64,000 nt of DNA from an archaeon (GCA_030636025.1 DAOVXQ010000002.1:10848-74847); one strand, 5' to 3'. Shown: positions 10,050-27,032, numbered from the stretch's first letter. Numbers and translations: made by a program. The notes: a model not told the origin generated them from the sequence alone.

Positions 10050-10259
10050 ATGCACGTATTACAGCCCAAACACACAAAATTAAAACCAGAAGAGGTTGAA
10101 AAACTACTTTCTGAATTGAATATTTCTCTTGCACAATTGCCGAAAATTAAAATTTCAGACCCTGCGCTTCCAGAAAACTGCGAGATTTCTGATGTGATAA
10201 AAATAGAAAGAATATCAGACAGCCAGAAACCGGTCTATTACAGGACGGTGAGTATATAA
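10050..10259 (+). CDS. rpoH: RNA polymerase subunit H (Rpo5)
   Basis: HVLQPKHTKLKPEEVEKLLSELNISLAQLPKIKISDPA...YYR is the canonical RpoH sequence and gene position. Confidence 0.85.
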   Translation: MHVLQPKHTKLKPEEVEKLLSELNISLAQLPKIKISDPALPENCEISDVIKIERISDSQKPVYYRTVSI

Positions 10260-13200
10260 TGCAAATTCAACAGCCAAAAGAAGAGCACATTCTTGTGAAA
10301 AAATATTTGAAAGAGCACAGCTTAGTTGAGTCAAATATAACTTCGTTTAATGATTTTATGAACCATCGGATGCAGGAGATTGTGAATGAGATAAGTAATT
10401 CTATTTCTGACGACGAACATGAAATAAGTTTAGGTAAAATTAAAATAGACAAGCCGATTATTATTGAGGCAGATGGGAGCTCTCATCTTTTGGCGCCGGC
10501 AGAGGCAAGAATCAGGGGGCTGACTTATTCTGCGCCTGTTAGTTTAGAGATTACAATAAAACAGGAAGGACAATTAGAAAGCCATAATGTTGAAATCGGG
10601 AAAATCCCAATCATAATCAAAAGTGATGCGTGTAATTTGTCAGGAATGTCAAAAGAAGAACTAGTAAAAAATTATGTTGACCCATTAGACCCAGGTGGTT
10701 ATTTTATTATTAATGGAAATGAACGAGTAATTGTAATGACAGAGGATTTAGCAGCGAATCAACCATTTATTGAAAAAGCCAAAGGAACTAAAAAAGGAGT
10801 TATGCTGAGGTTGTTTTCTCAAAGAGGGAGCTACAGAATTCCAATAACAATAACAGACACCAACGAAGGAATTATTGAGGTTTCATTTAGCAGATTTAAA
10901 AATATCCCGCTCGTAGTATTATTAAAAGCATTAGGGCTAACTAAAGAAAGTGATATTGCAAAACATATAGATAAAGAGACAGATAGTTTAATTGTTAATT
11001 TATATGAATTCGCAGGGATTCAAAATGAGAAGGATGCAATGATGGCGATTGCTGAACAGACTTCTCTTCAGGGAACAGAAAAAGAAATTCTTGACAGAAT
11101 TAAACAACGGCTTGATTCGTATTTTTTGCCCCATATTGGATTGGAAAAAGAAGACAGGGTTGAAAAAGCGATTACTATCTGCAAGTTTGTGAAACAGTTT
11201 TTAATTGCAAAAGAAAATGTAGAGAGTTTGACTGACAAAGACCATTATGCAAATAAAAGGGTCAGGATGTCAGGTGATTTGCTCGGAGATTTATTCAGGG
11301 TTAATTTAAATATTTTAATTAGGGATATTCAACATTCATTGCAAAAAATTCAAAAGAGAAAGAAATTTTATTCTATAAAGTCGATTGCGAAGTCTACTTT
11401 GTTTACTCATCGGGTTAAAAGTGCGATTGCAACAGGTAACTGGATTGGCGAGAGAACAGGGGTTACACAAAATATGGATAAGACAAATTACCTTGCTATT
11501 TTGTCTCAATTACAAAGAGTTTCAAGTATGTTGCCTGGTGAACAGGAAAATTTCCTGGCAAGAACACTGCACCCAACTCATTATGGAAGATTTTGCCCTG
11601 TTGAAACACCAGAAGGAACTGAAATCGGGCTAAGAAAAAATTTGGCCTTGCTGGCAAGAATTTCTACAAGGGCTGATTTAGAAAACAAGGATTTTATTAA
11701 AGAGTTAATAGAACTGGGGATGAAAAAAGAAATTGAAGAAGAGTCTGGAAGCGATGTTTTTTACAATGGGAGATTTATTGGGCATGTGAAAAATTTTAAA
11801 GAATTTATTTTTAATTTAAAATCAAAAAGAAGAAATGGGGAATTGCCAATTGAATTAAGTATTAGATTTAATAAAGTTTTGGATAGTATTATTTTGTCCA
11901 CAGAAGTTGGGAGAGTAATGAGGCCGTTGATAATTGTTGAGAATGGAAAAAGTAAATTAACAGAAGAGCATATTAAACTTTTAAAAGAAGATGCATTATC
12001 CTGGAAGGAACTTTTAAAGAGAGGGGTTATTGAATACCTCGACGCTGCTGAAGAAGAAAATGCTTTGGTTGCCTTGGATAAAAAAGATATTGCAGAAGAG
12101 TATACTCATTTAGAAATTGATAAAATTGATTTGTTGGGGGTTGTTACTTCTTTAGTTCCTTATGCAAATTATGACCAGAGTTCAAGATTAAACAGGGGGA
12201 GTAAAACCCAGAAGCAGGGTTTGGGATTATATGCTGCGAATTTTTTTACAAGGATTGACACTGATGTTAGTATTTTGCACTACCCGCAAAAACCAATTGT
12301 CAGAAGTTTTATCTACGACACTTTAGAGGTCCATCCTGCAGGACAAAATGTTATGGTCGCTATTATGACTCACGAGGGTTATAACATGGAAGATGCCTTA
12401 ATTTTAAATCAGGGGAGCATTGACAGAGGATTGGGGAGGAGCACATATTTCAGACCATACACTTCTATTGAATTAAATTATGCAGGCGGATTAAAAGACG
12501 AGATTACAATTCCTGAAAAAGAAGTTTCTGGTTACAGAACTGAAGAGAGTTATAGATTTTTAGAAGATGACGGCATTGCTTACCCTGAGGCGAAAATGAA
12601 CTCTGGGGAAGTTGTTATTGGAAAAACAAGTCCTCCGAAATTCTTGTCAGAAGTCAGGGAAATTTCAATTAAAGCAAGAAAAGAAGCGAGTTCGGTTATC
12701 AGGCAAGAAGAGTCAGCGATTGTTGATACTGTTTTTGTAACATCAGATAATCAGGGAAATAAAATAATTAGAGTTAAAACAAGAGACCAGAGAATTCCTG
12801 AGTTGGGGGATAAGTTTGCGACTTCCCACGGGCAGAAAGGGGTTGTCGGCGCGATTGTTCCTGAAAATGATATCCCTTTTACATCTCGAGGAATAAAACC
12901 AGATATTATTTTCAACCCGCACAGTATTCCAGGCAGAATGACTGTTGGTTATTTAATTGAATTATTAGCTGGAAAAGTTGCATGTTTATCAGGGAACATC
13001 GTCGATGGGACTGGTTTTTCAGGGCAAAAAATTACAGATTTAGAAGAGCAATTAAGAGAATCAGGATTTAGATTTGACGGCAAGGAAACTTTGTATAATG
13101 GAATTACTGGAAAAATAATGCGGGTTAAAATTTACATTGGGAACATGTATTATCTTAAATTAAAATATATGGTTAGCAATAAAATGCATGCTCGTGCTTC

Positions 13201-13537
13201 TGGAAAGGTTACTTTATTGACGAGACAGCCGATTGAGGGACGGGCGCGGGGCGGGGCATTAAGATTAGGAGAGATGGAGCAACAGGCATTAGTTGCACAC
13301 GGTGCTTCGCTGTTATTAAAAGAAAGATATGATTCAGATAAAGTTGTTATTAATATCTGCACTAAATGCGGGGCTGTTGCAATCGACGACAGTGTTAGAA
13401 ATAAATTATTTTGTCCTCTGTGCAACAGCCAAGAAATCGAACCAGTTGAAATGTCTTACGCATTCAAATTATTAGTTGATGAAATTCAGAGTTTGCATAT
13501 CAAAACTAAATTTAATTTAAAAAATAAATACGAATAA
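10259..13537 (+). CDS. rpoB: RNA polymerase subunit B (Rpo2), unsplit
   Basis: 1092 aa with GDKFATSHGQKGVVG, FNPHSIPGRMTVG, RLGEMEQQAL and a C-terminal Zn ribbon. Confidence 0.95.
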   Translation: MQIQQPKEEHILVKKYLKEHSLVESNITSFNDFMNHRMQEIVNEISNSISDDEHEISLGKIKIDKPIIIEADGSSHLLAPAEARIRGLTYSAPVSLEITIKQEGQLESHNVEIGKIPIIIKSDACNLSGMSKEELVKNYVDPLDPGGYFIINGNERVIVMTEDLAANQPFIEKAKGTKKGVMLRLFSQRGSYRIPITITDTNEGIIEVSFSRFKNIPLVVLLKALGLTKESDIAKHIDKETDSLIVNLYEFAGIQNEKDAMMAIAEQTSLQGTEKEILDRIKQRLDSYFLPHIGLEKEDRVEKAITICKFVKQFLIAKENVESLTDKDHYANKRVRMSGDLLGDLFRVNLNILIRDIQHSLQKIQKRKKFYSIKSIAKSTLFTHRVKSAIATGNWIGERTGVTQNMDKTNYLAILSQLQRVSSMLPGEQENFLARTLHPTHYGRFCPVETPEGTEIGLRKNLALLARISTRADLENKDFIKELIELGMKKEIEEESGSDVFYNGRFIGHVKNFKEFIFNLKSKRRNGELPIELSIRFNKVLDSIILSTEVGRVMRPLIIVENGKSKLTEEHIKLLKEDALSWKELLKRGVIEYLDAAEEENALVALDKKDIAEEYTHLEIDKIDLLGVVTSLVPYANYDQSSRLNRGSKTQKQGLGLYAANFFTRIDTDVSILHYPQKPIVRSFIYDTLEVHPAGQNVMVAIMTHEGYNMEDALILNQGSIDRGLGRSTYFRPYTSIELNYAGGLKDEITIPEKEVSGYRTEESYRFLEDDGIAYPEAKMNSGEVVIGKTSPPKFLSEVREISIKARKEASSVIRQEESAIVDTVFVTSDNQGNKIIRVKTRDQRIPELGDKFATSHGQKGVVGAIVPENDIPFTSRGIKPDIIFNPHSIPGRMTVGYLIELLAGKVACLSGNIVDGTGFSGQKITDLEEQLRESGFRFDGKETLYNGITGKIMRVKIYIGNMYYLKLKYMVSNKMHARASGKVTLLTRQPIEGRARGGALRLGEMEQQALVAHGASLLLKERYDSDKVVINICTKCGAVAIDDSVRNKLFCPLCNSQEIEPVEMSYAFKLLVDEIQSLHIKTKFNLKNKYE

Positions 13538-26601: not shown

Positions 26602-26660
26602 TAAGCTTTATTTTTTATTTTTAATTCAGAATTTGGACTAAAAGATAGAAACCAAAAAAT

Positions 26661-27032
26661 TTACTTCATTTCAGTAACTTTATACATTCCATCTTTAGAT
26701 GCTTCTAAAACCATTCTTTGAGGAAGCGGAATATTTGTTTTTAAGAAATGTGGAGTTACAATTAAATAATCTAATCTTTTAAGGTTAATATCCCCGCGAT
26801 TTAAATCCTCATTGTATTTAGTTATTGAATTACCTGCATCTGAGGTTACACCAATATAAGCTCTTTCTACTGGACGATTTACACTTCCTACGCCTGTTAA
26901 GTGGACAAATTCTTCAGAATTAATTGGATATACAAATATGCTATATGGTCTATCTTTTTCTCCACGAGTGATTACTGCTACCAGATCTCCTCGGTATTGT
27001 TCTTTTATTTGTCCCCCATAAAAAGCTTTCAT
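26661..27032 (-). CDS. 123-aa hypothetical protein
   Basis: Clean ORF whose start codon directly abuts the (ATA)n microsatellite. Confidence 0.45.
   Translation of the reverse strand: MKAFYGGQIKEQYRGDLVAVITRGEKDRPYSIFVYPINSEEFVHLTGVGSVNRPVERAYIGVTSDAGNSITKYNEDLNRGDINLKRLDYLIVTPHFLKTNIPLPQRMVLEASKDGMYKVTEMK

Follow-up and report, generated by a model that had tools for sequence, protein, structure and literature searches.

The gene string that joins the RNA polymerase subunits to NusA, ribosomal proteins S12 and S7 and the elongation factors belongs to the most stable gene orders known and serves as an anchor for synteny and phylogeny. In a tiny genome of the Pacearchaeota (DPANN) this string contains additional small genes, which raises the question of whether these are new parts of the machinery encoded around them or passengers that come and go. 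We addressed this in a window of 64,000 nucleotides (the whole stretch of DNA that was analysed) and in the corresponding regions of related genomes.

Core genes and guests of the string

Pfam and NCBIfam searches recovered rpoH-rpoB-rpoA(fused)-nusA-S12-S7-EF2-EF1a in the canonical order, with all genes on the plus strand. The string is non-contiguous: five junctions measure 245-1900 nt each and together contain eight ORFs, here termed guests. The initial annotation had described just such an interruption at five junctions, and we found all eight extra same-strand ORFs where it had placed them; the same eight genes came out of a separate, independent gene call made on a contig almost identical to this one. 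The features, in order, are:

10050..10259, plus strand: rpoH (Rpo5), which starts the string (PF01191, E 3.1e-17); stop overlaps the rpoB ATG
10259..13537, plus strand: rpoB, unsplit, 1092 aa, with seven Rpb2 domains
13539..13778, plus strand: guest i79, a 79-aa orphan with four cysteines; 1-nt spacers to rpoB and to rpoA
13780..17301, plus strand: rpoA with A' and A'' fused, Rpb1 domains 1-5 in one ORF; 1173 aa from the ATG
17402..18961, plus strand: guest i519, 519 aa, in the L30e slot (NosD 1.9e-15, Beta_helix 2.1e-12)
19199..19618, plus strand: nusA-like KH protein (TIGR01952, E 3.6e-18, under the curated cut-off)
19688..20110, plus strand: ribosomal protein S12 (PF00164, 4.6e-39)
20110..20406, plus strand: guest i98, a 98-aa orphan; ATG overlaps the S12 stop (TAATG)
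20458..20481, plus strand: duplicate of the S12 3' end (S12 remnant), directly 5' of the i99 ATG
20483..20782, plus strand: guest i99, a 99-aa orphan; codon score 0.26
20784..20978, plus strand: guest i64, 64 aa, 1 nt past the i99 stop; TAATG overlap between the i64 stop and the S7 ATG
20978..21658, plus strand: ribosomal protein S7 (PF00177, 2.5e-32)
21715..22059, plus strand: guest i114, 114 aa, member of a small family that a sub-clade carries between S7 and EF2
22147..24336, plus strand: EF-2, with GTP_EFTU and EFG domains
24351..24602, plus strand: guest i83, 83 aa, CxxC zinc-ribbon-like, with weak zinc-ribbon Pfam hints only
24665..25183, plus strand: guest i172, 172 aa, with a hydrophobic N-terminus, Tyr/Asp-rich body and Cys-rich end
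25300..26601, plus strand: EF-1alpha, the final core gene (Pfam)

Downstream of EF-1alpha lies a minus-strand orphan (26661-27032), followed by other unrelated genes. The 1173-aa length of rpoA was also obtained by a gene call on strain L034, and copies of the nusA-like KH protein at the same position in congeners are 59-66% identical. We also verified the reported absence of L30e and S10 from their usual slots. S10 was found neither after EF-1alpha nor elsewhere in the assembly, which is 86% complete; it is present in 23 of 24 congeners, lying on other contigs in those compared. L30e was not found in this assembly nor in any of the 24 congeners; each genome yielded a single L7Ae-family gene, except for three that yielded none. 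The rpoA|nusA slot is where L30e lies in other families of the order. No tRNA or Rfam RNA was found in the gaps.

Stop/start coupling joins several guests to core genes, as had been noted: TAATG overlaps are present at rpoH/rpoB, S12/i98 and i64/S7, and 1-nt spacers at rpoB/i79, i79/rpoA and i99/i64. By contrast with these, i519, i114 and i172 have AT-rich spacers, and some starts are preceded by a motif resembling a TATA box.

Coding character and affinities of the guests

The longest same-strand ORF was equalled in none of 2000 shuffles in each of four gaps and in 5 for S12|S7, and, from the coordinates, ORFs account for 83% of the gap DNA. Codon scores of the guests range from 0.15 to 0.34 (true genes 0.27 +/- 0.11; shadow ORFs -0.17), with i79 in the range of true genes. 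Where comparisons were available, dN/dS was 0.45-0.66 for i114 and 0.55 for i83 (S7, 0.12; S12, 0.07), and i172 showed a pN/pS of 0.27 relative to strain L037; the comparison of i114 with strain L036 yielded 11 non-synonymous and 0 synonymous differences. Judging from these features, the extra ORFs look like real genes, under weak purifying selection where relatives exist. No homologue anywhere is available to gauge constraint on i98, i99, i64 and i79, some of which may be non-functional.

In agreement with the initial annotation, which recognized no family among the small guests, Pfam, NCBIfam, PHROGs, PADLOC and PDB sequence searches all came back empty for them. No homologue of i98 was recovered among 5.8 G protein clusters, and none of i99 except in a near-identical strain, while for i79 HMMER, run over the full set of 1.84 G representatives, produced only TPR-repeat noise. 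The i64 protein, which has no family match in Pfam or NCBIfam and was otherwise searched by cluster look-up and against relatives, is the sole member of its own 90% cluster. Among the small guests i98 also stands out by its GC content of 40%, versus 28-33% in the others.

The remaining four guests, i114, i83, i172 and i519, have homologues outside the species, whereas i98, i99 and i79 have none. At the S7|EF2 junction, homologues of i114 are present in L036 (92% identity), L068 (65%) and L066/L067 (46%). A Ca. Pacearchaeota MAG carries a 48% identical homologue of i83 at the corresponding junction, and two congeners have relatives of i172, which by eye is probably secreted, at the position that i172 takes here. 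In another congener a relative of i519 (phmmer 4e-13) lies between S7 and EF2. The i519 gene contains 75-nt tandem repeats (18449-18744), and its product is a predicted surface protein that would combine a pilin-like N-terminus with a parallel beta-helix. Of the two parts of the earlier description as a pilin-like beta-helix protein, the beta-helix is borne out by significant NosD and Beta_helix matches, while the archaeal pilin N-terminus is recognized weakly, with PF07790 (0.058) and TIGR02537 (7.8e-4) both below their cut-offs. The description of the guests as lineage-specific calls for correction: most are restricted more narrowly, to a strain or species, and i114, i83 and i172 do have relatives. 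The initial annotation had itself allowed that the ORFs might be conserved in no relative, yet at least these three are kept in the same slot.

Turnover among strains and congeners

The window layout is reproduced at 99.94% identity in L034 and L035, which are independent assemblies. By contrast, in strain L036, which is 95-97% identical to the window, S12 and S7 abut through a TAATG with no insert, and i98 is missing. The difference between the strains is an all-or-none block of 868 nt with a clean TAATG empty site, this 'insert' being either a gain in the window strain or a loss in L036; no graded S12|S7 spacer was seen between strains. A second difference of this kind is provided by L037, which carries an additional 135-aa gene between i83 and i172, flanked by two copies of ATCACAACAATCCTTAAATATT (a 22-nt direct repeat).

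The reported S12 remnant proved to be real: the sequences at 20087-20110 and 20458-20481 agree in 22 of 24 bases, and the S12 tail is found in those two places only, genome-wide. It is also the only instance of a duplicated upstream-gene tail among the 174 occupied junctions tested. Beside the insert, the window and L036 are 90.9% identical in the 3' part of S12 and 94.4% in the 5' part of S7, compared with 98-99.6% farther away. Divergence is thus elevated on both sides, as would be looked for in co-conversion, but this does no more than suggest that recombination is tied to the insert, because EF2 carries a similar tract of 5% divergence without any insert. No donor of the 868-nt insert was recovered in this genome, in its relatives or in a phage collection, nor was any donor for i98 and i99 in the protein collection.

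Across the congeners the junctions range from -8 to 956 nt for S12|S7 and from 47 to 5677 nt for S7|EF2, and their slots are mostly empty or differently filled. Tblastn matches at the locus were absent for i79, i519, i98, i99, i64 and i114 across 16 congeners and 13 same-order genomes (for i79, this covers 11 congeners in which rpoB and rpoA are both present); among the 16 species of the genus, only i83 and i172 of the small guests had matches there. Of 247 same-strand junction ORFs 184 were singletons by phmmer, a count partly inflated in the relatives by spurious shadow ORFs within large gaps. Several small guest families turn up at different junctions, and in one case at two junctions of one genome, and the guests of congeners with known domains include LamG, KaiC-like, M54 peptidase and MgtC proteins.

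The repeated colonisation of this conserved string at its gene boundaries, remarked upon in the initial annotation, is thus confirmed by eight ORFs at five junctions, but it is not peculiar to this cluster. The L3-SecY ribosomal operon of the same genome has three guests, and 20 congeners show different guests at nearly every junction; therefore, the colonisation is a clade-wide habit of rapid gain and loss rather than a fixed lineage-specific gene set.

The guests were also compared with known classes of mobile elements and core subunits. None has a nuclease, integrase or transposase domain. Homing endonuclease genes were rejected for lack of any LAGLIDADG, GIY-YIG, HNH or PD-(D/E)xK nuclease domain, and integron-like cassettes since no attC-like or end-pairing inverted repeats bound the guests and no common recombination site was found. 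Only AT-rich inverted repeats of 70-89% complementarity, none of them perfect, occur around the guests, whereas perfect 13-14-nt GC-rich inverted-repeat pairs are located at 30-33 kb of the window. IS elements, transposons and casposons were set aside as there is neither a transposase nor terminal inverted repeats, the two recent insertions showing only direct repeats of 22-24 nt. Known small RNAP or ribosomal subunits, a possibility left open by the initial annotation, gave no match in Pfam, NCBIfam or PDB, and the guests are missing from congeners and, at S12|S7, from the 95-97% identical strain.

Origin and significance of the guests

Most guests are orphans, and the cargo is assorted, ranging from a beta-helix surface protein of pilin type and a Tyr-rich protein that is probably secreted to a zinc-ribbon protein and several proteins without recognizable affinity. 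Because this content differs between species and even strains, the guests do not, to judge from comparisons of sequence, belong to the polymerase or ribosome; their gain or loss even between strains makes them look like passengers rather than new parts of the machinery. Hence we favor, as the likely explanation, that the gene boundaries of the string are permissive landing sites for small guests, which are passengers exchanged by recombination. The guests would be expressed by riding the host operon, some via TAATG overlaps or 1-nt spacers and others with a short AT-rich spacer of their own. Their turnover would proceed through recombination, with the highly conserved flanking genes supplying homology for swapping occupied and empty junctions between diverged relatives, and the S12 tail (24 nt) and the spacer repeat (22 nt) are examples of the short direct repeats that occasional illegitimate joins would leave behind.

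A more active role could be envisaged if the guests were selfish or mobile single-gene cassettes that target conserved-gene boundaries by intron-less homing or integron-like capture. The recurrence of small guest families at different junctions, the 22-24-nt direct repeat at each of two independent recent insertions, the unusually diverged flanks of the S12|S7 insert and the perfect GC-rich inverted repeats about 3 kb downstream are all compatible with this, but we consider it unlikely given that nuclease, integrase and transposase domains are lacking, that inverted repeats of the downstream type are not seen around the guests, that the 22-nt repeat is found nowhere else in the genome and that tail duplication is confined to one junction. 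Birth de novo in place, from spacers expanded between core genes, would account for the orphan status and native codon usage and for our finding neither an external nor an internal source of the DNA; it is hard to reconcile with an all-or-none block and its clean empty site, with the GC content of i98, above that of its surroundings, and with the S12 tail copy, which shows that ready-made DNA was joined in, and we accordingly give it very little weight.

About as little is to be said for the ORFs being annotation noise, i.e. non-coding open frames in expanded spacers. The four guests without homologues, the low confidence of AlphaFold2 models (pLDDT 56 for i114 and 51 for i83) and the excess of non-synonymous differences in i114 would be expected of noise, but the frames are far above the length expected in 32% GC DNA, span exactly from upstream stop to downstream start, fill most of the gap DNA with codon usage resembling that of true genes and, for i114, i83 and i172, are kept in the same slot with dN/dS <1. 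Least probable of all is that the guests are unrecognized, fast-diverging subunits or regulators of RNAP, ribosome or elongation factors, kept in place for stoichiometric co-expression. Their tight coupling to core genes and the persistence of i114 in the S7|EF2 slot across ~20% S7 divergence would fit such a role, as would the four similarly spaced cysteines shared by i79 and the same-slot guest of a congener. These two proteins do not align, however, no guest resembles any RNAP or ribosomal family, most congeners have the slots empty or differently filled, and the whole S12|S7 trio is dispensed with in a strain 95-97% identical.

The guests are reminiscent of phage 'morons', extra genes that interrupt pairs of neighbouring conserved genes in the late operons of lambdoid phages and classically have their own promoter and terminator and often a deviant composition. 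Both are single genes between neighbours in relatives, vary in presence among close relatives (S12 and S7 are adjacent in L036, and the 135-aa gene of L037 is absent from the window) and bring cargo unrelated to the host operon. Unlike morons, several guests are spacer-free and apparently reliant on coupling, only i98 departs in GC, and they reside in a core operon of a cell. Integron gene cassettes too are single-gene units that are added or removed and expressed from an upstream platform, as the guests presumably are, but the latter have no attC-like repeats or common site and do not adjoin a recombinase; archaeal cassettes were reportedly described by Ghaly and colleagues in 2022. Insertions that split the conserved transcription and translation gene cluster in particular lineages have been reported (2019, PMC6735719; Brandis 2021, PMC8046335); these are reported to be multigene and to lie between operons, whereas the present guests are single small genes inside operon-like units (S12|S7, S7|EF2, rpoB|rpoA) and vary by strain. 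Species-specific orphan genes of prokaryotes have been shown to lack outside homologues, to be rare within species and to have host-like GC and signs of purifying selection, with some in operon-like contexts (Vakirlis and Kupczok 2024, PMC11293555), but that survey was genome-wide and of gut bacteria, and a concentration at universal-operon junctions is not described in it. We found no paper describing such junction guests in archaea. The contribution of the present analysis is the strain-level occupied and empty alleles, the two direct-repeat scars and the dN/dS values for an RNAP-NusA-S12-S7-EF2-EF1a host.

The internal junctions of this string thus turn over on a strain time scale in one DPANN clade, and in annotation the guest ORFs should not be labelled as new ribosome or polymerase parts. 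The finding bears on how much an essential operon tolerates, with pairs of occupied and empty alleles allowing tests of polarity and coupling, and on the route by which orphan genes enter tiny symbiont genomes. A bolder extension, which we put forward with considerable reserve, is that conserved-gene boundaries in Pacearchaeota constitute a gene-capture platform, in which single-gene units would be taken up with a 22-24-nt local duplication, expressed by translational coupling and spread via flanking genes as homology arms; spread between diverged relatives would be possible because these are the best-conserved homology arms of the genome. If this were true, these symbionts would acquire their orphan genes mainly through the most conserved operons.

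The core string and the genes between its members

The assembly holding the window comprises 733 kb in 17 contigs, with 32% GC and 86% completeness. The core genes of the rpoH-rpoB-rpoA-nusA-S12-S7-EF2-EF1a string were assigned by means of Pfam and NCBIfam, and all lie on the forward strand:

Core genes of the string in the window
10050-10259, +, rpoH
10259-13537, +, rpoB, unsplit
13780-17301, +, rpoA, with A' and A'' in one ORF
19199-19618, +, NusA-like KH protein
19688-20110, +, S12
20978-21658, +, S7
22147-24336, +, EF-2
25300-26601, +, EF-1alpha

Between these genes we recovered the same set of extra ORFs as had been listed in the initial annotation, hereafter termed guests and named by their length in amino acids (i79, i519, i98, i99, i64, i114, i83 and i172). 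All eight were also predicted independently on a contig that belongs to a different assembly and is 99.94% identical, and no tRNA or Rfam family was found in the gaps of the string. The TAATG overlaps that had been taken as translational coupling were confirmed at rpoH/rpoB, S12/i98 and i64/S7; spacers of a single nucleotide separate rpoB/i79, i79/rpoA and i99/i64, and the remaining junctions have spacers of 14-237 nt. The reported S12 remnant is likewise genuine: the last 24 nt of S12 (20087-20110) are copied at 20458-20481 with 22/24 identical positions, directly preceding the start of i99.

The fusion of rpoA' and rpoA'' into one ORF is shared by the congeners, i.e. the other species of the genus. 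In four genomes of other families (L022, L023, L025 and L032) the best rpoB HSP spans only residues ~498-1092, and on the strength of this partial match to the unsplit rpoB of the window we suspect that their rpoB may be split. A long ATA/TAT trinucleotide run (27033-27094) lies immediately upstream of a minus-strand orphan (26661-27032).

L30e and S10, which had been noted as missing from the string, did not surface elsewhere in the assembly. Its single L7Ae-family gene above the cut-off reads, by eye, like L7Ae itself, and S10 is absent from this 86% complete assembly. A second, L30e-like member of the L7Ae family was found in none of the 24 congeners, and such a gene occupies the rpoA|nusA slot in several other families of the order; L30e may have been lost genus-wide. 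S10 was detected in 23/24 congeners, on a contig other than that of S12 in those compared, and directly follows EF-1alpha in at least one other family.

Coding status and content of the guests

Annotation noise, hidden subunits and de novo birth in place are all unlikely explanations of the guests. In four gaps none of 2000 shuffles per gap equalled the longest same-strand ORF, and 5/2000 did so in S12|S7. A codon log-odds score trained on 206 long ORFs of the window's genome gave 0.15-0.34 for the guests and 0.15-0.23 for Rpo5, NusA and S12, with control means of 0.27 +/- 0.11 for pieces of true genes and -0.17 for shadow ORFs; about 83% of the gap DNA is ORF. For the same genome pairs dN/dS is 0.45-0.66 in i114 and 0.55 in i83, as against 0.12 in S7 and 0.07 in S12, and pN/pS relative to a close strain is about 0.25 for i83 and i172. 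Judged by such ratios, selection on those guests that have relatives is weakly purifying. From its closest strain i114 differs by 11 non-synonymous and 0 synonymous changes, all outside the invariant columns of its family, a pattern that fits very fast or diversifying change over a constrained core. A further 54-aa ORF (20055-20219) was rejected because its matches in relatives are merely an alternative frame of the conserved 3' end of S12.

The largest guest, i519, shows significant NosD and parallel beta-helix domains along with a weak archaeal pilin-type N-terminus, and we read it as a putative surface protein. Its beta-helix part contains in-frame tandem repeats of 75-nt period (three overlapping 146-nt copies, 79-86% identical, at 18449-18744), which are a possible site of length variation. 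The product of i172, hydrophobic at the N-terminus, rich in Tyr and Asp along its body and rich in Cys at the end, looks by eye like a secreted protein. A CxxC...C/H pattern with weak zinc-ribbon hints is seen in i83, and four Cys residues in i79. The six small guests have no match in Pfam, NCBIfam, PHROGs, PADLOC or PDB sequences, so that the earlier statement that they belong to no recognised family is upheld. We discarded a match of i64 to an AI-designed TIM barrel in the PDB (without a passing stretch), PDB matches of i83 that are generic zinc-finger noise, and matches of i79 to TPR-like repeat proteins, which cover ~25 residues and represent repeat-amplified noise. Apart from the latter, i79 has zero homologues among 1.84 billion representatives, and i98 and i99 have none among 5.8 billion protein clusters. 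AlphaFold2 models of i114 (pLDDT 56, 4 sequences) and i83 (pLDDT 51, 3 sequences) were too uncertain for a fold search.

The rpoB|rpoA guests of the window (13539-13778) and of the congener G005 (L006:5512-5757) both have four Cys residues, with spacings of 7/26/9 and 5/22/8 residues respectively, and BLASTP yields no alignment between them; their likeness could reflect either convergence or divergence past recognition.

Junction contents across the genus, the order and a second operon

We compared the locus in 16 congeneric species and in 13 genomes from other families of the order. Within the genus the rpoB, rpoA and EF-2 proteins are 75-84% identical. At the locus, tblastn found no match to i79, i519, i98, i99, i64 or i114 in any of these genomes; i83 was found in one species and i172 in several (by its N-terminus, or weakly). 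Junction lengths across relatives range over 4-628 nt (rpoB|rpoA), 55-3716 nt (rpoA|nusA), 50-2560 nt (nusA|S12), -8 to 956 nt (S12|S7) and 47-5677 nt (S7|EF2). As S12 and S7 overlap or lie <=16 nt apart in 10/13 other-family genomes, the tight state is ancestral. The gaps of relatives are mostly occupied by same-strand, mutually unrelated ORFs, and among those with recognisable domains are genes for a pilin-signal LamG protein, a KaiC-like ATPase, an M54-type peptidase and an MgtC protein. In a wider search, relatives of i114 (65% and 46% identical) turned up in two further uncultured lineages, in both cases between S7 and EF-2, which implies that i114 is an older resident of this slot in the sub-clade; a metagenome scan added none beyond a contig already among the known relatives. 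To judge from these comparisons, the guests are not parts of the core machinery. The EF-2 gene of one i114-sharing relative (L066:7149-10760) contains an intein with a LAGLIDADG domain (Pfam), and that of the window has no intein.

Guest insertion is not peculiar to the RNAP-EF string. The L3-to-SecY operon of the window's genome (contig C9, about 62000-84500, minus strand) contains three coupled, unrecognised ORFs:

Guests of the L3-SecY operon
L3|L4, C9, minus strand, 167 aa
L23|L2, C9, minus strand, 156 aa
L30|L15, C9, minus strand, 113 aa

An independent gene call and Pfam labels concur over the stretch that they cover, from the 156-aa ORF onward. None of the three has a homologue in 20 congeners, and nearly every junction of this operon is filled by 250-680 nt in some of those species. 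With both operons pooled, 184/247 same-strand junction ORFs are singletons by phmmer, some of them spurious shadow ORFs within large gaps; a few small families are found at more than one kind of junction, in one case at two junctions of a single genome. In most congeners (L046-L062) the best matches to S3-L29-SUI1 are located between S5 and L30 rather than between L22 and S17, pointing to the translocation of a block within the operon; the canonical order is kept in the window's genome and G005.

Strain-level turnover and origin of the guests

Protein cluster look-ups led us to a strain from a sister sample, whose contigs share 95-97% identity with the window. In one of these (L036) the whole 868-nt i98-i99-i64 block is missing and the S12/S7 join reads ...GATAATGG..., with a clean TAATG. 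The other (L037) has an additional 135-aa orphan gene in the i83/i172 spacer, flanked by two exact copies of ATCACAACAATCCTTAAATATT, of which the window carries a single copy that differs at one position. This 22-nt repeat has no other site in the genome beyond this locus, and hence was dismissed as a genome-wide recombination site. The S12 tail copy ahead of i99 indicates that i99 once directly followed S12, as guests do in other species, and therefore that i98 joined in later by nested insertion. Both differences between the tail copies are synonymous for KIEKGRR*, and the copies may thus stem from two S12 alleles. Such duplication of the upstream gene's tail occurs at 1/174 occupied junctions, and we therefore do not regard it as a general scar of insertion.

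The window and L036 are 98.3% identical in nusA, 98.9% and 90.9% in the 5' and 3' parts of S12, 94.4% and 97.9% in those of S7, and 99.6% in early EF-2. The raised divergence beside the insert is consistent with import of the junction and its flanks from a diverged relative, whether as a gain in the window's strain or as a loss in L036. A 400-nt EF-2 tract devoid of any insert (22850-23250) is 95% identical to L036, with 99.6% identity over the preceding 700 nt, which shows that the population has recombination mosaicism independent of the inserts.

The main rival to such exchange, a dedicated cassette or homing mechanism, appears improbable. No nuclease, integrase or transposase domain was detected in any guest. 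The cassette design of the array at 30-33 kb was dismissed for the guests, which are not surrounded by end-pairing inverted repeats of that array's kind. Nor did the inserted DNA match IMG/VR or a phage collection, or, by blastn and tblastx, any internal source in its own genome.

In the full-text literature we found no description of guest genes at such junctions in archaea. The nearest published parallels are insertions that break up the corresponding cluster in bacteria (PMC6735719, PMC8046335) and species-specific orphan genes (PMC11293555). We consider it probable that operon junctions are permissive and accumulate fast-evolving passenger genes, which would ride the expression of the core operon and would be swapped by recombination that uses the conserved neighboring genes as anchors.
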